Below are positions 2,577-44,700 of a stretch of DNA of 64,000 nt, one piece after another (within the stretch, counting starts at the first letter, position 1; each line of letters opens with the position of its first letter). The notes below the pieces were generated by a model. That model was not told the origin of the DNA and searched no databases. It was given only the letters and a program-made list of their open reading frames with translations. The translations under genes were made by a program, and so were the position numbers. The DNA comes from an uncultured bacterium. GTDB taxonomy: Bacteria > Actinomycetota > Actinomycetes > JAVEEB01. The stretch is from the NCBI GenBank assembly GCA_964236265.1, contig CAXSDE010000004.1:32331-96330 (forward strand). Direction: 5' to 3'.

Positions 2577-3155
2577 TCACCATCCCTGAGCAGGCGGACA
2601 GCAGGGGCCGACGACCCCCCGGTCGCACCGCTCTTCGCGTCGAGGAACACGACGAGGTCGCCGGAGGACGCGAGCAGACCCTTCCACAGCGCCTCGCCCC
2701 TTGCCGGGGCGCTCGCCCAGATCCGGCCGGATGTCCGTAGCGGCCAGCACGCGCGCGCCGGCCGCCCCGGCGACGGCGGCCGTGTCGTGCGTCGACCCCG
2801 AGTCGATCACCAGGACCTCGTCGATCAGGCCTCCCGCACCCATGAGATGCCGCCGGATCGTCGCCGCGATCGCCCCGATGGTCGCCGCTTCATTGTGGGC
2901 CGGCAGCACCACCGAGGTCGTCGTACCGGATGCAAGGGCAGCAAGATCGACCGCGTCGTACGAGCCGACCGTCCGCAGCACCTGGCCGCCTCCCGCCAGG
3001 GGCGAGGAATGCACCCGATATTCTTTCGGTTTGACGCCTCGTGGGCAGTTGCCCACACTGAGGTCAACTCCTCGGATCGTGCAACTCCCGGGGATGACAA
3101 CTCCATACCGCTCATCCAGAGGGGCAGAGGGACCGGCCCGGTGAAGCCCCGGCAA
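2577..3155 (-). pseudogene. glucosyl-3-phosphoglycerate synthase-like GT2 gene (gpgS-like), 3'-truncated by an element insertion
   Basis: VVLPAHNEAATIGAIAATIRRH...IDSGSTHDTA...PGKG matches the GpgS N-terminal half. After GKG the reading frame shifts. The shifted frame still reads EALWKGLLASSGDLVVFLDA (GpgS-like) and then diverges into the HNH element sequence. Confidence 0.55.
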
Positions 3156-3249
3156 CCATCACCGTCATGCGCGAAAGCGCTCGGCGGCGACAGGTGCCAA
3201 TTCCGGCTCAACGTCGAAAGGCGCTGGGGAAGATGAGGAAAGGCTCACT

Positions 3250-4509
3250 GTGACCATCTCTGTCGAAGCGCCCGCGGGCGCCTTCGGTCCTGCCACCGCA
3301 CTCGTCTGTCGCGAATGTGGCACGACGTATCCCCTCGGCCCGCAGCACGTCTGCATCGAGTGCTTCGCACCCGTCGAGATGGGCTACGACGACGACCGGC
3401 TCGCAGCCGTCACCCGCGCGAGCATCGAGGCCGGCCCGCAGAACATCTGGCGGTACGCCGGGCTGCTCCCCGCCCCCGCCGAGGAGTTCCGCATCGGCGA
3501 CGGCGTCGGCATGACGAAGCTCATCCGCGCCGACAACCTCGCCCGCGCGCTCGGCATGAAATCCCTGTGGGTGAAGGACGATTCCGGCAACCCGACCCAC
3601 TCGTTCAAGGACCGCGTCGCCGCCGTCGCCCTGTCCGCAGCCAAAGCGCTCGGCTTCGAAACCGTGGCCTGCGCATCAACGGGCAACCTCGCGAACGCGG
3701 TCGCCGCCGCGGCGGCGCGGGCCAACCTCAAGTCGGTCGTGTTCATCCCCTCGGACCTCGAGCCGGCGAAGATCGTGACGACGGCCGTGTACGGCGGCCA
3801 GCTCGTCGCCATCGAGGGCACGTACGACGACGTCAACCGGTTGTGCAGCGAGGTGGCCGGTGAGTTGCCGTGGGCGTTCGTGAACGTCAACATCCGGCCG
3901 TTCTACGCGGAGGGTTCCAAGACGATGGGCTACGAGATCGCCGAGCAACTGGGTTGGCGCCTCCCGGAGCAGGTCATCAGCCCCATCGCGTCGGGCTCGC
4001 TGCTGACGAAGGTCGACAAGGCGTGGCGTGAATTCTCCAAGCTGGGCTTGGTGGACGGCACTCCGTACAAGGTGTTCGGCGCGCAGGCCGAAGGCTGCAA
4101 TCCGGTCGCCGCCGCCTACGAGGCGGGCCGTGACTTCATGATCCCCGTCAAGCCCGACACCATCGCCAAGTCGCTCGCGATCGGCAACCCGGCCGACGGC
4201 CCGTACGCCATCGACATCGCCCGCCGCACCGGCGGCGCCATCGGCCAGGTCACCGACGAGGAGATCGTCGACGGCATCCGGCTGCTGGCGTCGACCGAGG
4301 GCATCTTCGCGGAGACGGCCGGCGGCGTGACCGTCGCGACGCTGCGCAAACTGCTGCGCGAGGGCAAGGTCGACCCGGACGCCGAGACCGTGCTGCTCAA
4401 CACCGGCGACGGCCTCAAGACGATCGACGCGATCGACCACGCCGTCGGCCCGACGGTCACGATCAAGCCGTCCCTCGACGCCTTCCTGCAGACGGGCGTC
4501 GGCCAGTAG
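3250..4509 (+). CDS. thrC: threonine synthase
   Basis: GTG start preceded by GAGGAAAGG. N-terminal Cys4 zinc ribbon (CRECG...CIEC). PLP motif SFKDRVA. 419 aa, typical for actinobacterial ThrC. Confidence 0.9.
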   Translation: MTISVEAPAGAFGPATALVCRECGTTYPLGPQHVCIECFAPVEMGYDDDRLAAVTRASIEAGPQNIWRYAGLLPAPAEEFRIGDGVGMTKLIRADNLARALGMKSLWVKDDSGNPTHSFKDRVAAVALSAAKALGFETVACASTGNLANAVAAAAARANLKSVVFIPSDLEPAKIVTTAVYGGQLVAIEGTYDDVNRLCSEVAGELPWAFVNVNIRPFYAEGSKTMGYEIAEQLGWRLPEQVISPIASGSLLTKVDKAWREFSKLGLVDGTPYKVFGAQAEGCNPVAAAYEAGRDFMIPVKPDTIAKSLAIGNPADGPYAIDIARRTGGAIGQVTDEEIVDGIRLLASTEGIFAETAGGVTVATLRKLLREGKVDPDAETVLLNTGDGLKTIDAIDHAVGPTVTIKPSLDAFLQTGVGQ

Positions 4510-4546
4510 CTCGCCGGTCGGCACGCAGCGCCGCTAGATTGGCGCC

Positions 4547-6958
4547 ATGAGTCGACGGGTGGGGCGCGTCGAGAAAGACACGTGCCGCGATTTCGTGCTG
4601 CCCGCACTCGCGGCGGCAGGGTGGGGCCCGGACATGATTCGCGCGGAGTTCCCGGTTGCTGCGGATCGAGTGATGAGCCGGGGAGGCTTGAGCAGAGACA
4701 TCGGTGACGGCCGTGTCGACTACCTGCTCGAAGCCGTGCCTGGGGTGGCTGTGGCGCTTGTGGAGGCGAAACGTGAGTACCGGCAGCCGAAGCACGGGCT
4801 GCAGCAGGCGATCCGCTACGGGATGCAGCTCGACGTCCCGGTCGTCTATGCCACGAACGGGCGGGGGATCGTCGAACACAATTTCGTGACCGGAGCCGAA
4901 CGGGCTGTCGAGTCCGTGGCCACTCCGGCTGAGCTGTGGAGCCTGTACGCCGAATTCCGCGGTCTCGACGACGATGGGATGCAACTGGTCTGTCAGCCCT
5001 TCAACCGCCGGCGGACGACCGCCGCCGGTGACGTCGTGAGCCCGCGCTGGTACCAGGCAGTGGCTGTCCACCGGGTGCTTCAGGCGATCGCCACCGGCCG
5101 CGACCGGGTGCTGCTCTTGATGGCTACAGGGACAGGCAAGACCTTCACCGCGATGCAGATCGTGGCGAAACTCCGGGGTTTCGAGGCCATCAAGCATCCC
5201 GAACGGAACTATCGAGTCCTCTACCTCGCGGACCTCGACGTCCTTCTCTCCAGCCCGATGAAAAAGGACTTCATGCCGGCGTTCGGATCGGAGCCCCTCC
5301 ATCGCGTGAAGGGGGGCGCCTCCTTCAGTCGTGAGATCTACTTCGCGAGCTATCAGGCGATGACTGGACAAGGAGACGCCGACGCTCTCTTCGGCGACTA
5401 TCCACGTGATTTCTTCGACTTGGTCATCGTCGACGAGTGCCACCGGGGCAGCGCGTCGGCGGATTCCTCGTGGCGCCGGGTGCTCGACCATTTCGCGACC
5501 GCCGTGCAGCTGGGCCTCACGGCGACTCCGAAGCAGGACGCAGAGGTCGACAGCTACGAATACTTCGGTGACCCCGTTTTCACGTATTCACTGCGCCAGG
5601 GCATCGAGGAGGGGTATCTCGCGCCGTACCGGGTGCGCCGAGTCGTTCTGAGCCCGGACGCGGACGGCTGGTCGCCGTCGCCCGGCGAGCTCGACAGGTT
5701 CGGCCGAGACATCCCGGAGGGTAAGTACTCGACCAAAGATTTCGAGCGTGCCGTGTCATTGGTCGCGCGGACCAGGCTGGCCGCGCGTCACCTCTCGGCG
5801 ACCCTTCGGCAGGACCCTTCGGCTCGAACGATGGTGTTCTGCGTCGACATGGAGCACGCGCAGGATATGCGAACTGCCTTGGTCGAGGCCAACCCCGATC
5901 TCGTACGTGATGACCCGGAATGGGTGGTGCGCATCGTCGGTGACGAGCCCGAGAAGGTGCGGCTACTCGAAGCCTTCATGGACCCAGAGGCAAGCACGCC
6001 TGTCGTCGCGACGACCTCGAAGATGCTCTCGACCGGGGTCGACGTCGAGGACCTCAAGTTGGTCGTCCTCTTTCGCCCCGTGGGCTCGATGGTCGAGTTC
6101 AAGCAGATCATCGGCCGTGGCACTCGGCTCTATCCGGAGAAGGGCAAGACTTCCTTCGAGATCATCGACTACGTCGGAGCGAGCGCGAAGTTCAGCGATC
6201 CCGACTTCGACGGTGTGCCGATCCGCGTACGCATCGAGTCGGTCGACGCCGACGGCGACGTGACCACCTCCACGGAGGTGCCGACTGGCGTCGACACGCC
6301 GGAGTCTCCACAAGTGATGCTCGCCGAGCCGGTGCCGCCCTTCCTGGCACACAACCCGGACGAAGAGCTGATGCCGGGGACGGGGGACTCTCTTCGCGGG
6401 AAGCTCTACGTCGATGACGGCGAGTTCGAGGTCGTTGCGGAAGCGAGGCTGGTCCCGGACCTCTCGACCGGCCGGACGGTCTTGGTCGAATACCGCCAGT
6501 ATGTGGCCGGGGCCGTGCGGGCGATCTCCGTGTCCGCGGAAGAGTTCACCGAACGGTGGTCCAGCTCGACGACGCGCGAGGCAGTCCTGGCGGAGCTCGC
6601 ATCGCGGGGAGTGGTGCTGTCCGAGCTCGGGGGCGACGACGCGTCGGACCCGCTGGACCTTCTGCTGCAGGCAGCGTGGAACGTCCCCGGTCTCACGAGA
6701 TCCGAACGGGTCCGTCGCGTGCGGACGGCGCATGCAGGTGAGCTTGCCGCCCTGTCGGCCACCGCGCGCAACGTCCTCAGTGCGCTACTCGACCGCTACG
6801 CAACGCATGGCGTCGAAGAGATCATGTCGGGAGAGCTCCTCGTCGTCGAGCCCTTCCGCACCCTCGGGTCGCCGACCGAGCTGGCCGGCGCGTTCGGCGG
6901 AGCGGCAGCCTGGCATGAGTCAGTCGAAAGACTCCAGGCCTGGCTGTACTCAGCGTAA
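4547..6958 (+). CDS. hsdR: type I restriction enzyme R subunit (EcoEI-like HsdR)
   Basis: HSDR_N-like N-terminus. Helicase motif I LLMATGTGKTFTA and motif II VIVDECHRG. C-terminal EcoEI_R_C-like region. 803 aa. Confidence 0.9.
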   Translation: MSRRVGRVEKDTCRDFVLPALAAAGWGPDMIRAEFPVAADRVMSRGGLSRDIGDGRVDYLLEAVPGVAVALVEAKREYRQPKHGLQQAIRYGMQLDVPVVYATNGRGIVEHNFVTGAERAVESVATPAELWSLYAEFRGLDDDGMQLVCQPFNRRRTTAAGDVVSPRWYQAVAVHRVLQAIATGRDRVLLLMATGTGKTFTAMQIVAKLRGFEAIKHPERNYRVLYLADLDVLLSSPMKKDFMPAFGSEPLHRVKGGASFSREIYFASYQAMTGQGDADALFGDYPRDFFDLVIVDECHRGSASADSSWRRVLDHFATAVQLGLTATPKQDAEVDSYEYFGDPVFTYSLRQGIEEGYLAPYRVRRVVLSPDADGWSPSPGELDRFGRDIPEGKYSTKDFERAVSLVARTRLAARHLSATLRQDPSARTMVFCVDMEHAQDMRTALVEANPDLVRDDPEWVVRIVGDEPEKVRLLEAFMDPEASTPVVATTSKMLSTGVDVEDLKLVVLFRPVGSMVEFKQIIGRGTRLYPEKGKTSFEIIDYVGASAKFSDPDFDGVPIRVRIESVDADGDVTTSTEVPTGVDTPESPQVMLAEPVPPFLAHNPDEELMPGTGDSLRGKLYVDDGEFEVVAEARLVPDLSTGRTVLVEYRQYVAGAVRAISVSAEEFTERWSSSTTREAVLAELASRGVVLSELGGDDASDPLDLLLQAAWNVPGLTRSERVRRVRTAHAGELAALSATARNVLSALLDRYATHGVEEIMSGELLVVEPFRTLGSPTELAGAFGGAAAWHESVERLQAWLYSA

Positions 6959-6999
6959 ATTTTAGTTACAGGTCGTGAGACTCAGATGAAACTAAAAAT

Positions 7000-7623
7000 A
7001 TGGATGAGTGCTACGGTCGCTCAGTGCCCGGTCCCCGACAGGAGCTCCGTCAGAAACTGACGGCACTCGCCTTCTCGCAGTCTGGCTACTTCACGGCGTC
7101 TCAGGCTCTGTCGGTGGGCTACACCTACCAGGCGCAGAAATATCACGTCGACCACGGAAACTGGCTTCGGGTGGACCGCGCGCTTTTTCGCCTCCCCCAC
7201 TGGCCCGCCGATCGTGCCGACTCCTTCGTGCGGTGGTCGCTCTGGAGCGGCGGGCGGGGCGTCGTCTCCCACGAGTCCGCCCTGGCTGTGCACGAGTTGT
7301 CGGACATCGACCCCTCGCGCGTCCATCTCACCGTCGACCCCACTTTCCATACGCGAGACGACGCGGTGGTGCTTCACGTCGCACAACTCCGAGATGACGA
7401 GATCGACAGGCGTGGGGCGTGGGGCGTGACCACGCCTATGCGCACCCTTCTCGACGCCGCCGCCTCGGCCCTTTCCCAAGAGCATGTCGACGGCGCCGTC
7501 TCTGACGCCCTCCGGCTCGGACTCATCACGAGACGCGGTCTCCTCGCAGTGACGGATGGCAGCGACCTCATGGCTGCGCTGCGGCTCGAGCGCGCGTTGG
7601 CGAGTGCGGAGGCGCACCAGTGA
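7000..7623 (+). CDS. abiEi: AbiEi-family antitoxin / transcriptional regulator (type IV TA)
   Basis: 207 aa with the COG5340/AbiEi architecture (N-terminal wHTH, C-terminal domain). Its stop overlaps the GTG start of the downstream nucleotidyltransferase toxin gene (GTGA). It sits directly after an AT-rich spacer. Confidence 0.7.
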   Translation: MDECYGRSVPGPRQELRQKLTALAFSQSGYFTASQALSVGYTYQAQKYHVDHGNWLRVDRALFRLPHWPADRADSFVRWSLWSGGRGVVSHESALAVHELSDIDPSRVHLTVDPTFHTRDDAVVLHVAQLRDDEIDRRGAWGVTTPMRTLLDAAASALSQEHVDGAVSDALRLGLITRRGLLAVTDGSDLMAALRLERALASAEAHQ

Positions 7624-8490
7624 CGGGGTCCGACGCCGCACGCAATCTCGGCCATCGTGTGCGGGAAAGCGCTGCAGCGAGGGGGATCGACGCCGCGCGT
7701 CTGAGGCGTCAATTGGTATTTCAACGGATCCTGGCCCGTCTCGCCCCGACTGGCCTGTGGGTGCTCAAGGGCGGCTATTGCCTCGAAGTCCGGCTCGACA
7801 CGCAGGCGAGGGCGACTCGCGACCTTGACCTCGCTTTGCTGTCGTCCGTCGTTTCCACCGTGCTCGACGTCCAGGATCTCCTGGGCGCAGCCCTGGAAAC
7901 CGACGTCGACGGGGACGGGTTCCGCTTCGACGTGGAACTGCCCGTCGCGCTGGCAACGGATGAGGCGGGCAATCGAGGCTGGCGCGCCACCGTGCACGCG
8001 GCGCTCGGCGGCGAGAGATTCGCGTCCATCAAGCTCGACGTCGTCGCGCGCGCTGCGGAGATCGAGGGAGGGACGGAGACGCTCGACGTTCCCTGCCCGT
8101 TGCCCAGCTTGACGTACGACGCGGTCTCGATGCCGGCAGTGGACGTCGCGCAGCATGCGGCGGAGAAGGTGCATGCCTATTCGCGGGTCTATGCGAACGA
8201 CCGGCCGTCGACTCGGGTCAAGGATCTCGTCGACCTCGCCCTGCTTCTTGATGCCGAGCTCCTGGACGACGCGCGCTGGGCGGCGCGGCTGCGACATGTC
8301 TTCTCCGTCCGGGACTCATCGCCCCCTCCGCCTGCGCTTCCACCACCACCCGTCAGTTGGACCGGTCCGTACAAGGGCCATGGCCGCCGAGCTGTCGCTG
8401 ACAGGGACCGACGTGGTCGCAGCGTGGCAGCGGGTCAATGCGAAGTACGAAGGCGCGATCGACCCCACCATCCAGGAAGGCGCATCATGA
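7620..8490 (+). CDS. abiEii: AbiEii/AbiGii-family nucleotidyltransferase toxin (DUF1814), apparently frameshifted near 8375
   Basis: N-terminal NTase motif (KGGYCLEV...RATRDLDLAL) typical of DUF1814. The C-terminal about 40 aa (MAAELSLTGTDVVAAWQRVNAKYEGAIDP, stop 8488-8490) lie in the +1 frame. Frame 0 instead runs on, with no stop, into hsdM. Confidence 0.65.
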
Positions 8491-9989
8491 CCAGCCGCGG
8501 GCATAAGAACGCAGAGCCGATGACGACGCAGGCCCGGCTCTCGTCCGTCATCAAGGAGTCGCGAAACATCATGCGTAAGGACGCCGGCCTCAACGGCGAG
8601 CTCGATCGGCTGCCGCAGATGGCTTGGTTGTTGTTCCTCAAGGCTTTCGATGACTTGGAGGAGCAACGTGCCGTGAAGGAGCGCGGCTATCAGCCGGCCG
8701 TCGCGACGGAGTTTCGGTGGTCGTCGTGGGGCAGTGACAGTTCGCTGACAGGCGACCCGTTGCTCGTCTTCGTCAACAACCGCCTGCTGCCGCACCTGCG
8801 CGGCCTGCAGGGGTCGGGCAAGGCCACCGACCCTAAGGACACGCTCGCTCGCGTCTTCCAGGACACGCGCAACCGCATGCTGTCGGGCTACTTGCTGCGT
8901 GACCTGATCAACCAGCTCGACAAGGTGCAGTTCACCAACCGCGACGACATCCACACCATGGCTCACCTCTATGAGTCGATGCTGCGCGAGATGCGTGATG
9001 CCGCTGGTGACTCGGGAGAGTTCTACACCCCGCGGCCACTGGTGCGCTTCATGGTCGACATGATCGATCCGCGGCCTGGCGAGAAGGTGCTCGATCCGGC
9101 CGCCGGCACGGGTGGCTTCCTGGTGGAGGCATTCGAGCACATGACGGCCGACGCGACCCTGACGCCCACGGCCATGCGGAAAGTCAAGGACGGCATCCGT
9201 GGCATCGAGAAGAAGCCGATGCCCTACTTGCTCTGTCAGATGAACCTCCTCCTGCACGGCATCGAGGAGCCGAACGTCGATGAGGCGAACGCGCTCAACT
9301 TCGGTCTCGCCGAGATGCGCAAGGACGGCGTGGACGTCGTCCTGACCAACCCCCCGTTCGGCGGGGAGGAAGAGACCTTGATCCAGACGCACTTCCCGAC
9401 GAAGTACCGCACCGCTGAGACCGTGTGGCTGTTTTTGCAAGCGGTCATGGCTCGCCTGGAACGGAGTAAGTCGGGTCGCTGCGCGATCGTCGTACCCAAC
9501 AGCGTGCTCTTCGACCAGGGTGTGGGCGGACGTATCAAGGCTGACTTGATGGCGCGCTTCAACCTGCACACGGTGCTCCGGCTGCCGAACGGCGTCTTCG
9601 CGCCCTACACCCTCATCCCGAGCAATGTGCTGTTCTTCGAGAAGGGCAAGCAGGAGCCGCACATCTGGTTCTACGAGCATCCGATGCCGGAGGGTCGCAA
9701 GAACTACACGAAGACCAAGCCGTTGCGGTACGAGGAGTTCGAGGAGTGCGCGACGTGGTGGGGTGGATCGACGCGGAGCGGTCGTGTCGAGAACGAGCAC
9801 GCGTGGAAGGTTGAAGCAGCGTCCGTTAGGGCCGCTGGCTGCAACCTCGACCTGCGTAGCCCAAACCGCGCCGACGACCTCGTGCACCGAGCGCCTGCCG
9901 GTCTAGTCGCTGAGCTGATTGAGGTCGAGCAACAGATCCTCGACCTCCTCCGTCAGCTTCAGGTCGACGTGGAAGCCTTCACGATATGA
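8487..9989 (+). CDS. hsdM: type I R-M N6-adenine DNA methyltransferase subunit
   Basis: HsdM_N-like start (LWLLFLKAFDD). SAM-binding motif DPAAGTGGFLVEA. Catalytic NPPFGG. ATG overlaps the abiEii stop (ATGA). 501 aa. Confidence 0.9.
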   Translation: MTSRGHKNAEPMTTQARLSSVIKESRNIMRKDAGLNGELDRLPQMAWLLFLKAFDDLEEQRAVKERGYQPAVATEFRWSSWGSDSSLTGDPLLVFVNNRLLPHLRGLQGSGKATDPKDTLARVFQDTRNRMLSGYLLRDLINQLDKVQFTNRDDIHTMAHLYESMLREMRDAAGDSGEFYTPRPLVRFMVDMIDPRPGEKVLDPAAGTGGFLVEAFEHMTADATLTPTAMRKVKDGIRGIEKKPMPYLLCQMNLLLHGIEEPNVDEANALNFGLAEMRKDGVDVVLTNPPFGGEEETLIQTHFPTKYRTAETVWLFLQAVMARLERSKSGRCAIVVPNSVLFDQGVGGRIKADLMARFNLHTVLRLPNGVFAPYTLIPSNVLFFEKGKQEPHIWFYEHPMPEGRKNYTKTKPLRYEEFEECATWWGGSTRSGRVENEHAWKVEAASVRAAGCNLDLRSPNRADDLVHRAPAGLVAELIEVEQQILDLLRQLQVDVEAFTI

Positions 9990-11125
9990 CCGTCTCGTGG
10001 TCGCCGGCGGGGCGAGTCCTTGAGTTGCAACGGCGTTCGGTCGAAGTTCTGACCGACCAGGAATATCATGAAATCGGTGTCAGATCGTTTGGCAAGGGCC
10101 TGTTTCAGAAGGAGCCGACGAGCGGTGCTAGCCTCGGTGACAAGCGGGTCTTCTGTGTCCGTACGGGTGACCTAGTCATCAGCAACGTGTTCGCATGGGA
10201 GGGAGCCGTTGCAGTCGCTGGGCCGGAACACGACGGCATGATTGGCTCTCATCGCTTCATGACATGGACATCGCGCGGCGACGTTGATGTCAGCTACCTC
10301 CGTCACTATTTTCTGTCCGATCCAGGGCTGGGCAATCTGCGTCGGGCCTCGCCGGGATCAGCCGGCCGAAACAGAACGTTGTCGATCGCGGCGTTCGAGG
10401 CCATTAAGGTGCCTCTGCCGAGCCTGACCGAACAGCGTCGGATTGCAGATCATTTAACGGACCTGGGCGCGATGTCCGACGTCGCTCGCACAGCGACGGA
10501 TCGACTCAAGGCCACTAGTCACAGCATCTTCGATCGATTGGTGCTAGTCCCCGACCACAGCAAGTACCCACTTGGAGACGTCGTACAGCTAGCTCGCGAG
10601 TCGGTCGATGTTGTTCCTGACAGGTCTTACAAGACCCTCGGTCTGAAGAATCGTGGGCGGGGATTGTTCGAGCGCGCGGAGTTTACGGGGGGCGAAACGA
10701 AGTATCCGCGGCTCTTCGCGGTGAGGTCCGGTCAGCTGGTCTACAGCAAGTTGTTCGGATGGGAGGGTTCGGTTGCCATAGTTCCAGATCGATTCGATGG
10801 GCGGTTCGTGTCGCCGGAGTTCCCAACGTTTGACGTCGACGCGGAGCACATTCTGCCCGACTACCTGGAGCACTTGGCCCAACACCAAGCATTTACCAGT
10901 CAGCTGGCGTCCTCAACGACGGGCATGGGGCAGCGTCGTCAGCGCGTGAACATCGACGATTTTCTTAACATCGACGTTCCTGTGCCGAGCGTTTTGGAAC
11001 AGCAGTCCATCGTCCGGCAGCTGGATCAAGTCAGGCACCTCGATCTCCTCATGCGCAACCGAGCTCGCCTTGCCGACGCGCTTCTCCCGGCCGCTCGGAA
11101 CGAGATTTTCAACGCGATGCGCTGA
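9986..11125 (+). CDS. hsdS: type I R-M specificity subunit
   Basis: Two target-recognition-domain halves with conserved HsdS spacer/coiled regions. Start overlaps the hsdM stop. GC content is visibly lower than the flanks. Confidence 0.85.
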   Translation: MTVSWSPAGRVLELQRRSVEVLTDQEYHEIGVRSFGKGLFQKEPTSGASLGDKRVFCVRTGDLVISNVFAWEGAVAVAGPEHDGMIGSHRFMTWTSRGDVDVSYLRHYFLSDPGLGNLRRASPGSAGRNRTLSIAAFEAIKVPLPSLTEQRRIADHLTDLGAMSDVARTATDRLKATSHSIFDRLVLVPDHSKYPLGDVVQLARESVDVVPDRSYKTLGLKNRGRGLFERAEFTGGETKYPRLFAVRSGQLVYSKLFGWEGSVAIVPDRFDGRFVSPEFPTFDVDAEHILPDYLEHLAQHQAFTSQLASSTTGMGQRRQRVNIDDFLNIDVPVPSVLEQQSIVRQLDQVRHLDLLMRNRARLADALLPAARNEIFNAMR

Positions 11126-11783
11126 CACTCGACCATTGGTCGCCGGCGACTATCACGTGATCGAGGAGCCGCAAACCTACGTCTGCACTGGAGCCTTGCA
11201 GTCGCTGGGTCGCTGCCACGTCGTCCGCGCTCGGGGCAACAGTCCCGCCGGGATGGTTGTGGGCAAGCGCGAACGACAACCCGTCATGGCGAAGCACGAG
11301 TGACAGGATTTCGCGGATCGGAACGGCGCAGTGACTTGCCGACCCCCGTGCGACGAGCACCGTCCGTCGTACACGATGTTGGTTGTCGGCGACCAGTAGC
11401 AGCAACTCTTCCACGGCGGTGTGGCCGATCAGGGGAACTGCAATGGCTGCAATGTCAGCCGACGACGCCAACGACCGGCCCTCGGGTGCCCCGATCGCCC
11501 GCCGCGCCAACGCGAACGCCGAGACCAGCCGGGCAGCCTTCGCGGGACCGATGCCGTGGCGGCGTGCGAGCTCGTCGGTGTCCGCCCGCGCGAGCCCGGC
11601 TACACCGCCCCACTCGGCGAGAAGCGCCTGCGCAAGGTCGAGGGCGCTTTCGCCGGGCCGACCAGACCCCAGCTGAATCGCGACGAGTTCCGCGTCGGAG
11701 AGCGATCGTGCGCCGTGCCGCTGCATTCGCTCCCGAGGCCGCTCATGGTTTGCCATGTCTCTGAGCGGTGTGCTGGGACTCAT
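11109..11783 (-). CDS. radC: RadC-like JAB/MPN-domain protein
   Basis: Helix-hairpin-helix N-terminus (ERPRERL...LSDAELVAIQLG) and JAMM motif HNHPGG. Convergent with hsdS, with a 17 bp overlap. The internal Met at 11756 is a possible start. Confidence 0.8.
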   Translation of the reverse strand: MSPSTPLRDMANHERPRERMQRHGARSLSDAELVAIQLGSGRPGESALDLAQALLAEWGGVAGLARADTDELARRHGIGPAKAARLVSAFALARRAIGAPEGRSLASSADIAAIAVPLIGHTAVEELLLLVADNQHRVRRTVLVARGSASHCAVPIREILSLVLRHDGLSFALAHNHPGGTVAPSADDVAATQRLQGSSADVGLRLLDHVIVAGDQWSSVSASR

Positions 11784-15126: not shown

Positions 15127-15558
15127 TCAACTGACGCAGAACTCATTGCCCTCCGGGTCGCGCATCGTGGTGGTGACGGGCCCGCGGTCGGCCGTCGTCC
15201 AGGCGACCGTCGCGCCCAGGGCACGCAGGCGCTCGACCTCGGCAGGGGCCAGCACGGGACCCACCTGGACGTCGAGATGCACGCGGTTCTTGGTCGACTT
15301 CCGCTCCGGAACGCGTTGGAAGAACAGCCGCGGCCCCGCGCCAGCGGGGTCGGAGCAGGCAGCCACGTCGCGGAAAGCCCGCTGGCCGTCGAGCTCGATC
15401 GTCTCCTCCGCCGCGAGCAGCCCGTCGGCGACGAGCTTGTCCACGAACGGCCCGTGGTGCTCGACGTCGTAGTGCAGCGCGGCGGCCCAGAAACGGGCGA
15501 GCGCGTGCGGGTCGGCGGCATCCATGGCCACCTGCAGGCGGGGCACCATCGAGACCAT
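15127..15558 (-). CDS. VOC / glyoxalase-family protein
   Basis: The internal Met MVSMVPRLQV... has a glyoxalase-like fold signature (LHYDVEHHGPFV...RVHLDVQV). The upstream part of the 250-aa ORF is not coding-like. Confidence 0.65.
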   Translation of the reverse strand: MVSMVPRLQVAMDAADPHALARFWAAALHYDVEHHGPFVDKLVADGLLAAEETIELDGQRAFRDVAACSDPAGAGPRLFFQRVPERKSTKNRVHLDVQVGPVLAPAEVERLRALGATVAWTTADRGPVTTTMRDPEGNEFCVS

Positions 15559-15739
15559 CGAGACCTCCCGTGTCGGCGCTCGTCGCGACAAGTATCGCGA
15601 CGGGCGCCGATCCAGGACACGGGCGCCCCGTTGAGGGGCACGGGCCTCGAGGAACGACTCGCCGAACTGCTCCGCGGTCGTCAGCGGATACACCGGGTTC
15701 GCGGGCAATCGCTGGCCGCTCTCCTTGAGCTGGTAGGAC

Positions 15740-17548
15740 GTGGCTGCGTCGCTACGCGATGTCCGACGTGAGCACCCTGGGCGCGCGCGGGGAGACAAAG
15801 TTCTTGCCACCCGCACGTCGGCGGCCCGCGAAAGGGTCGAGACGGCCCAGGGCGGGGACGTTGGCCGCGTGACGATCACCTCAGGCGGCCCGCCGCTGCT
15901 CGACGCTCTGCTGCGGTTGCGCGCGGCGGTCGCCGTGACGCACCTGACCCTCGATGTCCCCGGTGCCGCTGCAGCGCGCGACGACCAGCGCCGGCTTCTC
16001 GATCAACTCGACGACTACGTCCTGCCACGCCTGCGCCGGCTGGACGCGCCGCTGCTCGCTGTCGTCGGGGGCTCGACCGGCGCGGGCAAGTCGACGCTGG
16101 TCAACTCACTCGTCGGTGAACGCGTCACCCGCTCGGGTGTGCTGCGCCCGACGACCCGGGCCCCGATGCTGATCTGCCACCCCGACGATGCGGCGTGGTT
16201 CGCCGACGAGCGGATCCTGCCCGGGATGACGCGCGCACCAGGCGGCTCCGACGCGCCGGCGACTCTCGGGCTCGTCTCCTCCGACGCCGTGCCCCGCGGC
16301 CTGGCACTGCTCGACGCCCCGGACGTCGACTCGATCGTCGTGGAAAACCGGCGGCTGGCGCGTCAGCTGCTCGACGCGGCCGACATGTGGCTGTTCGTCA
16401 CGACAGCCGCGCGCTACGCCGACGCGGTCCCGTGGGATCTCCTGCGCGAGGCCGGCGAGCGCGGGATCGCCCTCGCGATCGTCCTCGACCGCGTCCCGGC
16501 CGAGGCGCTCGGCGAGGTCGCCGCGGATCTGACCGCCAACCTCGAGGCCAACGGCCTCGGCTGGGCGCCATTGTTTTCCGTCGTCGAGACGCCCGCCGTC
16601 GACGGGCTGCTGCCGCCCGAGGCCGTCGCGCCGCTGCGCGACTGGCTGCAGGCCCTCGCCGCCGACGCCGCCTCCCGCGACGAGGTCGTGCGCCAGACCC
16701 TCGCCGGCGCGCTGCGGACCGTGGCAGAAAGGGCCCGCGCCCTGGTTGCCGCCCAGGAAGCGGAGGCCCAAGGTGCCGCCGAGTTGTCGGGCGTGGCCGG
16801 GTCGGCCTTCGCCGCGGCCTTGACCGACACCGACGACGCACTGCGCGACGGCCGCGTGCTGCGCGGCGAGGTGCTCGTGCGCTGGCAGGAGTTCGTCGGG
16901 ACCGGTGAACTGCTGCGCACGCTCGAGTCGCGTATCGGTCGGCTGCGCGACCGGATCGCGGCAGCGGTGACCGGCCGCCCGCCGGCCGGCGCCGACCTCA
17001 CCGCCGCGCTCGAGACCGGCGTGGAGGCCCTGGTCCGCGACGCCGACGCGCGCGCCGCGCAGCGCATCGCCGATGCGTGGGGGCACCGCCCGGACGGGGC
17101 GTCGCTCGTCCGCGAGCACGCCCTCGATCGCCCGTCGCCCGAGTTCGCCGGGCGCGCGAAGGACATGGTCCGCGAGTGGCAGCACGGAATCCTGGACATC
17201 GTCCGCGACACGGCTCAGGGGAAGCGGACGGTGGCGCGCATCCTCTCGTACGGCGTGAACGGAGCCGCACTCTTCGTCATGGTTGCCGTCTTCGCGCACA
17301 CCGGTGGGCTGAGCGGCGGAGAGGTCGCGGTCGCCGGCGGCGCGTCCGCCGTCGGGCAGAAGCTGCTCGAGGCGCTGCTCGGCGACCAGGCCGTGCGGGA
17401 CCTCGCGGCCCAGGCGCGCTCGGACCTCCGTCGGCGCGTCGAGGAGCTGTTCGCGACGGAGCGCGCCCGCTACGACTCGGTCCTGCCGGCGCCCGCGCCG
17501 CCGGCGCTCGCGGAGGCTGCCGCGAGCGTCGAGCGGGCGACCCGGTGA
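15740..17548 (+). CDS. dynamin-like / MMR_HSR1-type GTPase (paralog 1)
   Basis: P-loop GGSTGAGKSTLVNSL. G2/G3-like LLDAPDVDS. Long alpha-helical C-terminus. Start codon uncertain. Confidence 0.65.
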   Translation: MAASLRDVRREHPGRARGDKVLATRTSAARERVETAQGGDVGRVTITSGGPPLLDALLRLRAAVAVTHLTLDVPGAAAARDDQRRLLDQLDDYVLPRLRRLDAPLLAVVGGSTGAGKSTLVNSLVGERVTRSGVLRPTTRAPMLICHPDDAAWFADERILPGMTRAPGGSDAPATLGLVSSDAVPRGLALLDAPDVDSIVVENRRLARQLLDAADMWLFVTTAARYADAVPWDLLREAGERGIALAIVLDRVPAEALGEVAADLTANLEANGLGWAPLFSVVETPAVDGLLPPEAVAPLRDWLQALAADAASRDEVVRQTLAGALRTVAERARALVAAQEAEAQGAAELSGVAGSAFAAALTDTDDALRDGRVLRGEVLVRWQEFVGTGELLRTLESRIGRLRDRIAAAVTGRPPAGADLTAALETGVEALVRDADARAAQRIADAWGHRPDGASLVREHALDRPSPEFAGRAKDMVREWQHGILDIVRDTAQGKRTVARILSYGVNGAALFVMVAVFAHTGGLSGGEVAVAGGASAVGQKLLEALLGDQAVRDLAAQARSDLRRRVEELFATERARYDSVLPAPAPPALAEAAASVERATR

Positions 17549-19176
17549 AGGGCCGCCGCCCCGCGGCACCGGACGTCGGCGACCGGCTCACCGCCCTCGA
17601 AGCGGTGCTGTCCGACGCCGACGGACGCCTGTCGGCGGCGGACGTGGCGGATGCGCGCGCAGTGCTCTCCCGCGCCGGCGAGCGGCTGCGGATCGCGGGG
17701 CGGCACACCGTCGTGGCGCTCGCAGGAGCCACCGGCAGCGGCAAGTCCTCCCTGTTCAACGCCATCACGGGGACGCAAACCGCCCGCGTCGGGGTGACGC
17801 GACCGACCACGTCGACCCCGCACGCGGCGGTGTGGGGGGCAGACCCGGCGGCCGCCCTGCTCGAACGGCTGGGTGTCCCGGCCGGCGACATCACGGCACT
17901 GCCGCCCCGCGCCGTCGACGGCGACGGGCGTGCCGACGGGCACGGGCTCGCCGACGGGCTCGTGCTCGTCGACCTGCCCGACTTCGACTCCACCGAGCGC
18001 GGCAACCGCGCTCAGGTCGACCGGCTGCTCGATCTCGTCGACCTGTTCGTGTGGGTCGTCGACCCGCAGAAGTATGCCGACGGCGTCCTGCATGAGGACT
18101 ACCTGCGGCCGCTGTCGTCGTACGCCGAAGTCATGGTCGTCGTGTTCAACCAGATCGACCGGGTGACGGCCGCGCAGGCCGGTCAATGCCTCGCCGACCT
18201 GGGCGGTCTGCTGCGGGCCGATGGCCTGGCCGGCGTGCCGATCGTCGCCACGTCCGCACGCACCGGCGCCGGTCTGGTCGAGCTGCAGACGCTGCTGACG
18301 GGAGCCGTCGAGCGCCACGAGGCGCACGTCGCCCGCATCACGGCGGACGTCGCGCGCGTGACCGCGAGGCTCGCCGATCAGGTGGCGGGCGGCGACCCGG
18401 CGACGATCGGCCGCGGGGAGCGGGCGCAGCTCATCGCGGCGCTCGAAGTCGCCGCGGGAGCGCCGGGGTTGGCCGCGGCCGCAGGGGCGTCGTACCGGCG
18501 GGAGGCGGCGCTGCGCACCGGCTGGCCCGTGACGCGCTGGGTGGGCCGGTTGCGCCGCGACCCGCTGCGGGCGCTCGGCCGTGGTCGCGCCCCCGCGGTC
18601 GCGCCGACGGCAGCGGCCGGCGGTGCGGCGACGGTGGGACAGGCGCAGCTCGCCAACGCGGTGCGCGCCGTCGTCACCGGCGTGAGCGACAGCGTGCCGG
18701 CCGCGTGGCAGCCGTCCGTGCGCCGGGCGGTGGGCAGTGATGACCGGCGCCTGGGAATGGCCGTGCAGGAGGCGGTGGCACCGACGGCGATCCCGGTCGT
18801 GCGCCCCCGGTCGTGGTGGCGGGTGCTCGGCGCCGTGCAGCTCGTGCTGGTGCTCGCGCTGCTCGCCGGCGTCGTCTGGCTGGGCGTGCTCGCCGCCCTC
18901 CAGTATTTCCGGCTGCCGGATCCGCCCATGTATGAATGGCACCGCGTTCCGTTGCCCACCTGGCTCGTCGCCGGGGGTGCGCTCGCCGGCCTACTGGTCG
19001 CGCTCGTCGGTCGCCTGTTCGCGCGGGTCGGCGGCCGCCGCCGCAGTCGGCAGGTGCGTGCGTTGCTGCACGAACGGCTCGCCGCGGTCGCCCGCACGAC
19101 GGTGATCGACCCGCTGGTGGCGGAGCTGGCGACGCTCGAGCGCGTCCGGGCGGGGTTGCGCCGCGCGGCCGGCTGA
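17545..19176 (+). CDS. dynamin-like / MMR_HSR1-type GTPase (paralog 2, with C-terminal TM helices)
   Basis: GTG start overlaps the upstream stop (GTGA). P-loop AGATGSGKSSLFNAITG and VLVDLPDFDS. Two hydrophobic helices near the C-terminus (WWRVLGAVQLVLVLALLAGVVWLGVL, WLVAGGALAGLLVALV). Confidence 0.7.
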   Translation: MKGRRPAAPDVGDRLTALEAVLSDADGRLSAADVADARAVLSRAGERLRIAGRHTVVALAGATGSGKSSLFNAITGTQTARVGVTRPTTSTPHAAVWGADPAAALLERLGVPAGDITALPPRAVDGDGRADGHGLADGLVLVDLPDFDSTERGNRAQVDRLLDLVDLFVWVVDPQKYADGVLHEDYLRPLSSYAEVMVVVFNQIDRVTAAQAGQCLADLGGLLRADGLAGVPIVATSARTGAGLVELQTLLTGAVERHEAHVARITADVARVTARLADQVAGGDPATIGRGERAQLIAALEVAAGAPGLAAAAGASYRREAALRTGWPVTRWVGRLRRDPLRALGRGRAPAVAPTAAAGGAATVGQAQLANAVRAVVTGVSDSVPAAWQPSVRRAVGSDDRRLGMAVQEAVAPTAIPVVRPRSWWRVLGAVQLVLVLALLAGVVWLGVLAALQYFRLPDPPMYEWHRVPLPTWLVAGGALAGLLVALVGRLFARVGGRRRSRQVRALLHERLAAVARTTVIDPLVAELATLERVRAGLRRAAG

Positions 19177-19185
19177 CGCCGCGGA

Positions 19186-19951
19186 TCAGAAGCCGGGAAA
19201 GACGGCCTTCACGTCATCGAACGACACACCGGCCGCGTCGAGGACGGCGCCATCGGCGCCGTCGAGCCGTCCGTAGACCAGGCGGATGAGCTGTTCGGCC
19301 GGCAGCGTCAGCGTGCCGTCCGCCTGCTCTGGGGCCCCGGCGGTCAGCGTCGAGGACTCGCCGCCCCGCAGCGCGAACTCGCGTCCCGGGCCCGTCGTCG
19401 TGACCGCCAGCGTGAAGGTCTTGTCGCTCGGCTTGGCTGCCCAGCGCGCGGTGCGCGGTGCGCGTGTCGACGAGCAGCGCCGACGCGTCTGCGCTGAGGA
19501 CCGCGCCCGGCTCACGCATCACAGCGATGTCCCACGTGTGCACGGCGTGCTCGGCAAGGCGGATGCCGACAACCCCCGCGAGGTCGAACTCCATCCCGAG
19601 CCACGACAGGTGCGCCGACTCGCGCTCCGCCGGCGGGATGTCCAGCAGGCGCTGCACGGCGGCGGCGTCGGTCGAAATGGCGTCGGCGGCCTTCTCCTCG
19701 GGCGTCTTGGCGTTCCAGCGGTCCCAGATCGGCTGCATCTGCTGGCCGCCGGGCGCCTCGCCGCCGGTGAGGGCCGCCGTCGTCATGAGGGCGCTGTGTT
19801 CGGCGCCGCTGCCGAGGTGGGACAGGACGTCCGCGATGGTCCATTCGCGTACGACGGGCTGCGCACGTCGTCGGCGCCCAGATCCGCCGCCAGCTTCGCG
19901 AGGCGCTGGTGCGAGTTGCGCAGGGCGTCGGTCCAGGGCTGGGCGTCACTC
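19186..19951 (-). pseudogene. mycothiol-dependent maleylpyruvate-isomerase-like (DinB_2 / TIGR03083 family) gene with two frameshifts
   Basis: Three successive frames carry the N-terminal (MSDAQPWTDALRNSHQRLAKLAADL), middle (EWTIADVLSHLGSGAEH... inferred, ...MTTAALTGGEAPGG) and C-terminal (KTFTLAVTTTGPGREFAL...LIRLVYGRLD) parts of one family member. Confidence 0.55.
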
Positions 19952-21630: not shown

Positions 21631-22503
21631 TCACGGCAGGGCGCGCTCCACGGGGATCCACAGTTCGGCCTCCGCGGTGCTGCCATCGGCTGAGATGCGG
21701 GTGCGGAGGATCTCCGGCCCCGGCCGGCTGCGGTAGGGGTTGGCGGGGAACCACTGCGTGAACACGTCGCGCCAGAGGTTCTGCACGGCCGCGGGGAACG
21801 GGCCGTCGCTGTCGAAGACCGCCCAGCTGCCGGCGGCGACATCAATCGAGTCGAGTGAGTCCGGCACCGGCGCAGACGTGGCGACGCCGAGGAAATAGTC
21901 GTAGTCGGTGCCTTCTTGCGTGCGGTCGACGATGTTGTCGCTCACGCTCACGACGCCGGCGGGGTCCTGGTCGCCCAGCGCCTTGATCTGCGCCAGTTGG
22001 GCGGGGTCGATGCCGCGGATGAAGTCCGTCACCGCCGGGTTGAGGCCTTCGTGGACCAACGGGACGCGCGCCCGGCGGCCCGCAATCCGGAAGCTGTCCT
22101 TCTCGACGAGGCGATATCGCATGCTGCTACTTCCTTCGACGGTGAGACGAAAGGACATGCGGGGTTGGGACGACAGCGCCGCTCCTGCGCGGCGCACCTC
22201 GCCGGGCCCGACCCCGTGCACGGCCCGGAAGGCGCGGGCGAAGGCCTCGCCCGACCCGTAGCCGTACCGGATGGCCACATCGAGCAGGGACGTGCGGTCC
22301 GCGAGAACCTCCGCGGCGGCCACTGTGAGGCGGCGGCGGCGGACGTACTCGGACAGCGGCATCCCGGAGAGCGCGGAGAACATGCGGCGAAAGTGGTATT
22401 CCGACGTCAGGGCGATGCGCGCGAGCTCGGCCACATCGATCGGCTGATCGAGGTGGCTCTCGATGTGGTCCAGGGCCTGGTTCAGTCGATCCAACACCTG
22501 CAC
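21631..22503 (-). CDS. AraC-family transcriptional regulator with GyrI-like effector domain
   Basis: AraC HTH (AELARIALTSEYHFRRMFSALSGMPLSEYVRRRRL...) plus a GyrI-like C-terminal domain. 290 aa. Confidence 0.85.
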   Translation of the reverse strand: MQVLDRLNQALDHIESHLDQPIDVAELARIALTSEYHFRRMFSALSGMPLSEYVRRRRLTVAAAEVLADRTSLLDVAIRYGYGSGEAFARAFRAVHGVGPGEVRRAGAALSSQPRMSFRLTVEGSSSMRYRLVEKDSFRIAGRRARVPLVHEGLNPAVTDFIRGIDPAQLAQIKALGDQDPAGVVSVSDNIVDRTQEGTDYDYFLGVATSAPVPDSLDSIDVAAGSWAVFDSDGPFPAAVQNLWRDVFTQWFPANPYRSRPGPEILRTRISADGSTAEAELWIPVERALP

Positions 22504-22667: not shown

Positions 22668-24398
<1,731 letters not shown>

Positions 24399-41572: not shown

Positions 41573-41706
41573 TCATTTCGGTGGAGCCGAAGATGGCCCG
41601 CCGTTGACTCAAGATCCATCGGAAGGCACCGATTGACACCCCAACGGCAGAGCCAGGGGAGCGAACGCTGACCGTCGCGCACGGCTGACGAACGGAAGGC
41701 ACGCAC

Positions 41707-44700
41707 ATGTCGGACACCACCTCAGGTCGGGGACCCACCACTGTTTCGCGCGGGATGCGCGCGTTGCTCAGCGCCGTGCTCGTCGCCGCCTCGATGCTGT
41801 TCGGCGCCGTCACTGCCACCAGCGCGAACGCGACAGGACCGACGCTGACGGTGACGCCGAGCTCCACCGTGCGCGTCCCGCCGAGTGGGTCGACGGGCCT
41901 GTCGGGTCTCACGGTGTCGGGGGATGCGATCGACGACCTCACGGTCACCGTTGCCACGGACTTCGCCACGTTGAGCGTCGGCACGACCACCAACGTCGTC
42001 CTCGGCTACAACAACAGCTGGACCGGCACGCAGTCGGTCACCTTCTCGGGTCTGCAGTCCGACATCGACACGGCCCTGGCTTCCGTCTCGCTCGTGACGA
42101 CCGGGACGACCGGCACGGCGCACGTGTCGCTGACCGCGTTCGTGTCGCAGGCGGGGCTGTATTACCTGGCCAGCAACCAGCACTTCTACCAGTACGTCGC
42201 GAGCCCCTCGGTGACGTGGACGACCAGCGACATCAACGCCCGCGCCTCCAGTTTCCAAGGCCAACAAGGCTATCTCGCCACGATCCCCAACGACACGGTC
42301 AACGCATTCATCTCCACGAAGATCGCCAACGCCACCAACATCTGGTTCGGCGCGCGAGCATATGAAGCCGCCGCCACGGACGGTTCCCAGTCGTATGCGG
42401 TCGTCGGCGGAACGACCTACGCGCGGGTGTGGCGCTGGGCGGTCGGCGCCAACGAGAGTCCCATCCAGGGCACGGTCATCAGCGAGTGCACCAACGCGGC
42501 CGGCGCCTGCACGTTCCAGAACGCCGGGAGTTTCTACAGCAGCTGGGCCGGCGGCGAACCCAACAACTTCAACGTGAACGGCGCCGTCGCGTACGCGGGC
42601 GAGTACGTCGCCGTCACCAACTGGAGCGGCACTCTCGGCAAGTGGAACGATTTGCCGCCGGGCAACACGGGCACCAGCGGCTACGTCGTCGAGTACGGCG
42701 GCCGGACCAACGCCGACGCCTCCTTGGGCACGGGCTTCGCCGGTGTCGTGACGGCCACGGGCACCACGACGGTCGCCAACGCACCGGCCGTCCCCGCCGC
42801 CCCCGTTCTCAACGGAGTGCGCGGCGACACCGTGATCGACCTGTCGTGGACCCCGCCGAACGACGGTGGCTCCTCGATCACGGGTTATGAGAGCTCCGTC
42901 AACGGCGGCGCGTGGGCCACCCAGCCGACGACGTCGAGCAACGCGGTCGTCAACGGCAACGTCGTCACCACGGTCGCCGCGACGCTCACCGGTCTCACGA
43001 ACGGCACGTCGTACACCGTGCAGGTCCGTGCGTTGAGCAGCGCCGGCACGGGCGCCGCGAGCAACACCGTGACGCTGACGCCCGCGGCGGTGCCCGGCGC
43101 CCCGACCATCGGCACGGCGACCGGTGGCAACGCGCAGGCGACCGTCGCCTTCACCCCGCCGGGCGCCACCGGCGGCTCGGCCATCACGTCCTACACCGTG
43201 ACCTCCGGACCCGGCACGCCGGTGACGGCGACGTGCGCGGCGAGCCCCTGCACCGTCACGGGTTTGTCGAACGGCGCCTCCTACGTGTTCACCGTGCACG
43301 CCACCAACGCGGCCGGCTCGGGAGCCGAATCGGGTGCGTCCACCTCCGTCACGCCGATGACCGTGCCGGGTGCGCCGACGGTTCTCGCCGCGACGCGCGG
43401 CAACGGTTTCGCGAGCGTCGCGTTCGCGGCGCCCGCGAGCAACGGTGGCTCGCCCATCACCGGCTACACCATGACGACCTCACCGGGCGGCGCGACGGTG
43501 GCCTGCTCCGCCAGCCCGTGCGTGAAGAGCTCGCTCACCAATGGGACGGCCTACACGTTCACCATCCACGCGACCAACGTCGTGGGCAACAGCGTCGAGT
43601 CGGCGGCGTCCAACAGCGTCACTCCGGCGACCACCCCGGGAGTCCCGACCGGCGTCTCGGCGGTGCGTGGCAATGCGTCCGCGGTCGTGACCTGGACGGC
43701 GCCCGCGTCGACGGGCGGCTCCGCGATCACCAGCTACGTCGTGTCCGTCCACCCCGGCAGCGGCACGCAGTCGTGCGGCAGCCCGTGCACGGTCAGCGGC
43801 CTGACGAACGGCACGTCCTACACGTTCTCCGTGCACGCCGTGAACGCCGTTGGCGCCGGCACGGAGTCGGCCAACTCCGCTGCCGTCACCCCGGCCGGGC
43901 CCCCGAGCGCGCCGAGCGGACTCGTCGTCACCCGCGGCGACCAGACGGCCGTGGTCTCGTTCACGGCTCCCGGCGCGAACGGGTCAGCGATCACGGGCTA
44001 CGAGGTGTCCATCAACGGCGGGACCACGTGGCAGTCGCTGGCCACCGCCGGTTCGCCCACGGTCACGGGAACCGTGACCGGCTTGACGAACGGCACCAGT
44101 TACCCGGTGACCGTGCGGGCGGTGAACGCCATCGGCGCGAGCCCGCAGGCGACGCCGCAGGCCGTCACTCCCGCGACGGTCCCCGGCGCGCCGGGCACCC
44201 CGTCGGTGCTGCGCGGCGCGTCGCAGGTCAGCGTGAGCTGGACCGCGCCGGCGAGCAACGGCGGCGACCCGCTCACCGGCTACACGGTGACCTCGAGCCC
44301 GGGTGGCAACACCTGCACGGCGGCGGCCGCCGCGACGTCGTGCACCGTGACGGGGCTGACCAACGGCACCAGCTACACCTTCACGGTCCACGCGAGCAAC
44401 ACCGTCGGCAACGGCAGCGAGTCACCGGCGTCGGCCGCGGCTGTTCCGATGACGACGCCCGGCGCGCCGACGGGCGTGTCCGGTGTGCCGGGTGACCAGT
44501 CGGTCTCCGTCAGCTTCAGTGCGCCGGCCTCGAACGGCGGCAGCGCCATCATCTCGTTCACGGTGACCGCGTCCCCGGGGGGCGCCACCGCGACCTGCAG
44601 TGCGTCGCCGTGCGTCGTGCCCGGCCTGACCAACGGCACCGCCTACACGTTCACCGTGCACGCGGCCAACAGCATCGGCAACGGGGCGGAGTCCGCACCG

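Follow-up and report, generated by a model that had tools for sequence, protein, structure and literature searches.

The dynamin-like GTPases DynA and DynB of Streptomyces stabilise the FtsZ ring during sporulation and modulate cross-wall formation; to our knowledge, they have been characterised experimentally in Streptomyces only. Here, we describe two adjacent genes, a dynA-like and a dynB-like gene, which lie in a 64,000-nucleotide stretch of a contig from an uncultured actinobacterium (CAXSDE010000004.1) and very probably encode a pair of the same DynA/DynB family. The whole stretch is referred to as the window, and positions are those of the window unless another sequence is named. In S. 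venezuelae, dynA (vnz_12110) precedes dynB (vnz_12105). DynB, which has two transmembrane (TM) segments, counts SepX, SsgB and SepF2 among its binding partners and both contacts and recruits DynA (PMC8748795), and recruitment of DynA to the divisome needs GTP binding by both proteins (preprint 10.1101/2025.06.23.661029). DynB homologues have already been reported in unicellular actinobacteria (Bush et al. 2022).

How close is the window pair to these proteins? Streptomyces peptides were deduced from the primer tables of the 2025 preprint, which reports the S. venezuelae P-loop mutants DynA K74A and DynB K129A (10.1101/2025.06.23.661029). The DynA K74A primers encode STGAGKSTLVNSLVG; the product of the window dynA-like gene is identical to it in 15 of 15 residues and likewise has the lysine at residue 74. 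From the DynB K129A primers, TVIAIAGATGSGKSTLFNALAG / TVIAIAGATGSGKSTLFNALAGVPVSE is obtained, the counterpart of which in the dynB-like product is TVVALAGATGSGKSSLFNAITG. Primers for S. coelicolor imply a junction AAGGAGAGGTGACC, which corresponds to a GTGA overlap of the two genes. A scan of genome contigs with the P-loop pattern TGSGKSS[LI]F returned no Streptomyces locus because the Streptomyces string, TGSGKSTLF, does not fit it, and a homologue search with a peptide of 42 amino acids (aa) around the Streptomyces DynB P-loop gave zero candidates. A degenerate DNA pattern for AGATGSGKSTLFNALAG, applied to metagenome contigs, recovered 24 contigs. In the metagenome locus L099, the forward and reverse primers for S. 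coelicolor dynA find a perfect match, and the “confirm” primers to either side differ at 1-2 positions; L099 encodes a DynA (535 aa, K74; positions 1149-2756 of that locus) and a DynB (695 aa, K226) joined by GTGA. Locus L092 carries an exact S. venezuelae primer match, and the DynB P-loop lysines of L084 (residue 130) and L085 (residue 128) lie near that of S. venezuelae. In BLASTP comparisons with the L099 proteins, the DynA-like protein of the window is 48% identical to DynA over residues 8-359 (E 1e-92) and the DynB-like protein is 38% identical to DynB over aa 14-543, hairpin included (E 8e-79). An initial annotation of the window had proposed a dynamin-like pair and named DynA/DynB as an analogue; by these identities, DynA/DynB is a direct homologue.

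The window and Streptomyces pairs have in common the gene order dynA-dynB, the GTGA overlap, the DynA P-loop with K74, the motif DxPDxDS, and the position of the DynB hairpin. They differ in that (i) Streptomyces DynB carries a low-complexity N-terminal extension of 60-160 aa (P-loop lysine at K128-130 or K226), which the window protein does not have (K67); (ii) Streptomyces DynA is devoid of the conserved C-terminal hydrophobic helix-loop-helix that is present in the window protein; and (iii) the Streptomyces locus lies between tRNA-Arg(TCT) and a gene for an ABC-F ATPase, the window locus next to neither. Judged against the rest of the family, it is the Streptomyces proteins that appear atypical, with an extended DynB N-terminus and a divergent DynA C-terminus. 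Membership of the window genes in the DynA/DynB family is firm as far as sequence comparison goes, short of strict one-to-one orthology with the Streptomyces genes. The result for the window is thus mainly a clean annotation, that of an uncharacterised but recognisable DynA/DynB-family pair; its points of note are a hydrophobic DynA element absent in Streptomyces, the DxPD motif, and a relocated subclade.

Gene structure and conservation of the pair

The open reading frame (ORF) listing of the window contains two same-strand frames, 15740..17548 (+; ORF1, dynA-like) and 17077..19176 (+; ORF2, dynB-like), and the P-loop strings GGSTGAGKSTLVNSL and AGATGSGKSSLFNAITG are found in their translations. 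The GC content by codon position (0.85-0.95 at the third position, GC3, and about 0.5 at the second, GC2) fits both frames from about 15800 to 19200. Together with homology, it rules out two long antisense ORFs, 16106-17569 (-) and 17470-18942 (-), which are artefacts of high GC. Counted from the GTG at 17545, ORF2 encodes 543 aa, as originally stated; by contrast, the 602 aa originally given for ORF1 represent only its longest possible form, which starts at 15740. ORF1 most likely begins at GTG 15869 and encodes 559 aa, because the identical database protein has 559 aa, the ORF1 homologues align from GTG 15869 onward, and Streptomyces DynA is collinear with the protein residue for residue (8 to 8, K74 to K74). 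The dynA-like gene would therefore span 15869..17548 (+) and encode N-terminal helices, a compact GTPase domain, a long helical stalk and a hydrophobic helix-loop-helix. The dynB-like gene (17545..19176, +) encodes N-terminal helices, a GTPase domain, a helical stalk, a TM hairpin and a long C-terminal helix; its product is 100% identical to database protein P0121.

The two genes are joined as the initial annotation had described: DNA 17540-17549 reads cccGGTGAagg, and the TGA stop of the dynA-like gene shares four bases with the GTG start of the dynB-like gene (GTGA, 17545..17548, +). This overlap is not due to chance, because 63 of 77 related loci likewise have a 4-base (A/G)TGA overlap and 5 more a 1-base one. 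We infer that it couples the translation of both genes. Upstream, the intergenic region 15559..15868, presumed to act as the promoter region, separates the dynA-like gene from a divergent glyoxalase-like gene (15127-15558, -; as mapped on Logan contig L001, which is identical). A scan of the locus for a sigma-70-like promoter or a terminator gave none. The sequence GACAC occurs in this region; upstream of dynA-like genes, a WhiA-type GACAC is not enriched, as 25 of 77 loci have it and the background is 0.35. Downstream, a convergent ORF (19214..19786, -), whose codon-position GC pattern fits a minus-strand gene, has no Pfam match and is not conserved beside the pair elsewhere. With a minus-strand gene from about 19214 onward, which probably closes the operon, the operon consists of two genes.

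Relatives of both proteins are numerous. ORF1 has more than 8000, the top matches being 57-70% identical, and a word-indexed search gave 4066 for ORF2; an exhaustive search of 50%-identity representatives returned 1559 relatives with E <= 1e-30. A scan of one genome per species yielded 563 confirmed loci, the best 80 of which belong to Nonomuraea, Kribbella, Nocardioidaceae, Arthrobacter, Rothia, Cutibacterium, Janibacter, Terrabacter, Jiangella and others. At every testable locus, that is, one with enough upstream DNA (76 of 76), the gene immediately upstream of the dynB-like gene, on the same strand, is DynA-like (45-59% identical); the pair is thus co-conserved. These data describe dynAB as a module of two tightly coupled genes that is widespread and occurs in many non-sporulating and unicellular actinobacteria, among them Arthrobacter, Rothia, Cutibacterium, Kribbella, Nocardioides and Nonomuraea. 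Several DynB-like relatives (P0294, P0301, P0323, P0350 and P0381) are much longer, 847-1483 aa, with the DynB part at one end, and may be fusions with other domains.

GTPase domains, fold and membrane elements

Both proteins pass the Pfam Dynamin_N gathering score of 27 (ORF1, 38.1; ORF2, 32.0), and ORF2 also exceeds the cut-off of MMR_HSR1 with 36.2. The Dynamin_N match spans only the first 45 of 168 positions in both proteins. In NCBIfam, there was no match above any cut-off: Era, Der, HflX and HydF remained sub-threshold, and the models of ribosome-associated GTPases scored 12-29 bits against cut-offs of 116-307 (Era, 28.5 vs 237). Sequence and profile searches of the PDB returned Era-like G-domain stretches only and did not find dynamin-like structures. 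Could the two proteins be ribosome-associated GTPases of the Era/EngA/EngB/HflX type, which do not remodel membranes? This is highly improbable: the matches are limited to P-loop and G-domain stretches and fall far under the family cut-offs; neither protein has a KH, tandem-G or other domain for ribosome binding; the helical stalk of about 300 residues and the TM hairpin match dynamin-like folds; and the homology to Streptomyces DynAB is direct. The refuting case named when the pair was first noted, best matches to ribosome-associated GTPases devoid of a dynamin stalk, did not arise. These proteins carry misleading names in databases, among them “ABC transporter”, “EcfA2”, “EngB” and “YfjP family GTPase”; they are dynamin-like GTPases of the DynA/DynB family.

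The AlphaFold2 (AF2) models are confident and have a predicted local distance difference test score (pLDDT) of 82.1 and a predicted template modelling score (pTM) of 0.75 for ORF1, and 86.9 and 0.76 for ORF2. In both models, a pair of N-terminal helices precedes a compact G domain, about 190-205 aa in size, and about 300 residues form long helices. When the ORF1 model was used as a Foldseek query, the top 50 matches all belonged to the dynamin superfamily (BDLP, E 1.4e-9) and included IniA, Drp1, SynDLP, Fzo1, mitofusins and Cj-DLP1/2; the ambiguity about the family of ORF1 is settled by this predicted fold. The ORF1 and ORF2 families are paralogous, as initially proposed, over the N-terminal helices and the G domain (hhalign 99.3%, E 1e-20, 223 columns); beyond this part, no similarity between them is detectable. 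The layout is that of the dynamin superfamily, in which a helical neck/trunk stalk comes after the GTPase domain and bears a membrane-binding element at its tip. Other hallmarks of dynamins are absent: there is no G domain of about 300 aa, no canonical DxxG and no full Dynamin_N match. The original description of the pair as short and divergent thus applies to the G domains but not to the overall lengths, which are normal in the family.

In the DynA-like protein, the P-loop (G1) is GSTGAGKS (16070..16093, +), with the lysine at residue 74, and is invariant in the alignment of DynA-like proteins (A1); in the DynB-like protein, it is GATGSGKS (17725..17748, +), with the lysine at residue 67, and is invariant in alignment A2. 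The G3 position of the DynA-like protein is occupied by DAPDVDS (16313..16333, +), a DxPDxDS motif with Asp in place of the usual Gly of DxxG; D149, A150, P151, D152, D154 and S155 are invariant in A1. The DynB-like protein has DxPDxDS at aa 143-149. This motif replaces DxxG at G3 in 78 of 78 DynA-like and 78 of 78 DynB-like proteins, those of Streptomyces included; its place in lieu of DxxG might conceivably point to an unusual GTPase mechanism. Both G domains retain the P-loop, the switch-I threonines and the Walker-B aspartate.

Which of the two proteins reaches the membrane? The DynB-like protein has a TM hairpin (18811..19023, +) composed of helices at aa ~423-457 and 468-497 and a short Pro/Trp-rich loop, as seen in hydropathy (Kyte-Doolittle maxima 2.79 and 2.07) and in the AF2 model (helices 423-454 and 470-542). 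It aligns with the hairpin of Streptomyces DynB and occupies the site at which the paddle of other bacterial dynamins is found; 78 of 78 DynB-like proteins have two or more hydrophobic segments close to the C-terminus. The initial annotation had assigned two hydrophobic helices to the second protein only; the two strong helices stand, but the restriction to ORF2 does not, as ORF1 has a hydrophobic segment at aa 455-481 (Kyte-Doolittle maximum 1.96). This segment is part of a conserved hydrophobic helix-loop-helix (aa 455-504; 17231..17380, +), in which F475, T478, G480, E485, A489 and G491 are nearly invariant in A1. AF2 places helices 463-478 and 490-504, with low pLDDT, between stalk helices, and the element holds the same position in the stalk as the hairpin of ORF2. 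By analogy with BDLP (PMC6715688), it may act as a membrane-inserting paddle, and the DynB-like protein may not be the only one of the two that contacts the membrane. A hydrophobic segment is found in the last 40% of 77 of 78 DynA-like proteins, and at about residue 455-500 in the main-clade proteins that were checked; Streptomyces-type DynA has only a buried-looking hydrophobic helix, much earlier in the chain. If the segment of the common DynA form enters the membrane, the Streptomyces recruitment model would have to be adjusted for most of the family.

Other dynamin-like systems are more distant. Nostoc punctiforme BDLP and mitofusin/Fzo1 are 11-16% identical to the window proteins and gave no sequence-profile match to them, and their G domains are larger by about 100 residues. 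TM-scores against these structures are low (0.2-0.4) because hinge conformation or detail is not the same in the models as in the crystal structures. The fused double dynamin-like protein (DLP) of the Bacillus DynA type was rejected, with 13.6 bits for NCBIfam DynmDynABac against a cut-off of 1600. Mycobacterial IniA is soluble and has a lipid-binding loop, and no TM hairpin like that of the DynB-like protein has been described for IniA/IniC (PMC6715688). Neither phmmer nor a profile search matched IniA (6j72) at E <= 1; unlike iniBAC, the window locus has no iniB-like gene, and its upstream gene is the divergent glyoxalase-like one. Identity with IniA/IniC was rejected for want of detectable sequence similarity and of the iniBAC operon structure. 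Similar in organisation are Campylobacter jejuni DLP1/DLP2 and E. coli LeoA/LeoB/LeoC, in which adjacent DLP genes form one operon and the products form heterotypic complexes (PMC6104087). ORF1 resembles Cj-DLP1/2 in its fold matches to the 5owv chains. However, the Cj-DLP1/2 and Leo proteins are larger (~600-700 aa), cytosolic and without a TM hairpin, whereas the DynB-like protein of the window has one; Leo is also a three-gene system, the window pair a two-gene one, and PADLOC gives it no more than marginal scores (23.9 and 16-18 bits).

Genomic context and possible functions

The window locus is probably a two-gene operon that encodes a heterotypic, actinobacterial DynA/DynB-family pair of dynamin-like GTPases. 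Coupled translation would yield both proteins together. The DynB-like protein would be anchored in the cytoplasmic membrane and, with both partners bound to GTP, would recruit the DynA-like protein into a membrane hetero-oligomer at the cytoplasmic face. By homology with Streptomyces, the likeliest site would be the division septum, where the pair would stabilise the FtsZ ring and the divisome during membrane invagination; on this analogy, a role in cell division in the source organism stands at about an even chance.

Elsewhere, the pair usually lies downstream of tRNA-Arg(TCT), often together with tRNA-His, and upstream of genes for an ABC-F ATPase, MarR and YceI. Streptomyces-type loci have tRNA-Arg(TCT) about 300 bp upstream, and ABC-F is found downstream in L084 and L103. 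The subclade of the window comprises the window, L022, L096 and eight Streptosporangiales loci; among the 45 other full-length loci, ABC-F is present at 34 and tRNA-Arg(TCT) at 27. The 11 of these 45 that have neither flank all show a tRNA-Gln/tRNA-Glu context, with gltX-tRNA-Gln-tRNA-Glu upstream, and belong to Arthrobacter, Paenarthrobacter or Rothia. None of the pair's neighbour genes in the window is conserved beside the pair in other loci. The tRNA-Arg(TCT)/ABC-F context appears to be ancestral, and the window subclade appears to have left that neighbourhood. Such a position lends support to membership in the DynA/DynB family but does not define it.

Several observations weigh against a DynA/DynB pair of the Streptomyces kind. 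No locus of the window subclade (0 of 11) has ABC-F or tRNA-Arg(TCT), no division genes are found among the neighbours of the pair in the window, and neighbour-joining trees place the Streptomyces pairs outside the large clade that holds the window. The last 200 aa of ORF1, including the hydrophobic segment, are unalignable with Streptomyces DynA; because of this, the DynA recruitment model may differ here. Sequence alone puts the G domains nearest to GTPases of the Era/Der/HflX/MnmE type, and the G3 glycine is replaced by Asp, so that the catalytic chemistry is presumptive. Finally, a second DynAB pair could be present elsewhere in the source genome.

Some of these points suit a different view, in which the window pair is part of a sub-lineage (“DynAB2”) that was relocated and possibly duplicated and has a function unlike that of Streptomyces DynAB. 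The subclade stands apart by its flanks from the other loci and from the Streptomyces-type loci, which have both. Nonomuraea holds two types of pair, the L003 type and the divergent but syntenic L082 (N. gerenzanensis NZ_LT559118.1, 9994983-10008227), which is 42.6% and 36% identical to the window proteins, has kept ABC-F and likewise falls outside the window clade in the neighbour-joining trees. But N. gerenzanensis appears to hold the L082 type only, the family hallmarks (motifs, overlap and hairpin) are all kept in the window pair, and relocation by itself implies no new function. It is possible that the pair comes from a relocated or duplicated lineage; that this lineage has a function of its own is doubtful. 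NZ_LT559118.1 is listed in PLSDB as an 11.85-Mb “plasmid” and is evidently a chromosome.

Could the pair instead serve membrane surveillance and repair at membranes damaged by envelope stress, antibiotics or phage, as do B. subtilis DynA or IniA/IniC? The window proteins share the fold class of IniA and Cj-DLP1/2, a link to stress is frequent among DLP pairs of bacteria (PMC6104087), and both partners of this clade have hydrophobic membrane elements. PADLOC gives a weak LeoBC match on the ORF1 stalk (aa 336-530, E 5e-6) and weak LeoA matches, with scores of 16-24 bits for LeoA/LeoBC and no stretch that passes alone. A block of type I restriction-modification (R-M), AbiEii and RadC genes lies 4-11 kb upstream in the window; however, it is of lower GC and occurs beside the pair in no other locus. 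Elsewhere, the pair resides among housekeeping genes (tRNA-Arg, tRNA-His, gltX and ABC-F), sequence-level similarity to IniA or Bacillus DynA is absent, and the sole characterised homologues work in division. A surveillance role is therefore unlikely, although slightly less so than a separate function of a relocated sub-lineage. It is similarly improbable that three propositions hold together: (i) outside Streptomyces, in most actinobacteria and in the source organism, DynA inserts into the membrane itself, via a nearly invariant Gly-rich helix-loop-helix lost by Streptomyces DynA, rather than being soluble and recruited by DynB; (ii) the subclade of the window represents a relocated DynAB, or a second one, whose role, for instance in membrane repair or stress tolerance, differs from septation during sporulation; and (iii) the enzymes are unusual GTPases. 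A DynA/DynB-family pair encoded by a two-gene operon remains the preferred explanation.

Surroundings of the pair in the window

The block upstream of the pair (4538-11783) has a lower GC content (64-66% vs ~70-75% around it) and encodes a type I R-M system and RadC: an HsdR-like helicase (4538-6958), an N6_Mtase/HsdM that shares its stop-to-stop frame with an AbiEii-like domain (7506-9989), HsdS (9986-11125) and RadC (11109-11783). The block resembles a defence or mobile island. A link of the pair to this R-M/AbiE block was rejected because no neighbour in the window is conserved beside the pair elsewhere, and the block itself adjoins the pair in no other genome.

About 3 kb downstream of the pair, there is a gene for a Cpn60/GroEL-family chaperonin (22674-24398, +), and divergent from it a gene for an AraC/GyrI-like regulator (21631-22503, -); in other loci, neither gene shows a link to the pair. 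Farther away, an ORF of 1864 aa (41689-47283, +) contains at least 14 fibronectin type III repeats and has an unusual composition, with a GC content of 0.58 at the first codon position and 0.69 at the second. Near the beginning of the window, an S-adenosylmethionine (SAM) riboswitch (3109-3239, +; Rfam RF00162, 74.5 bits) overlaps the start of a stop-to-stop ORF for a pyridoxal phosphate (PLP)-dependent enzyme (3145-4509) and presumably lies in its leader.

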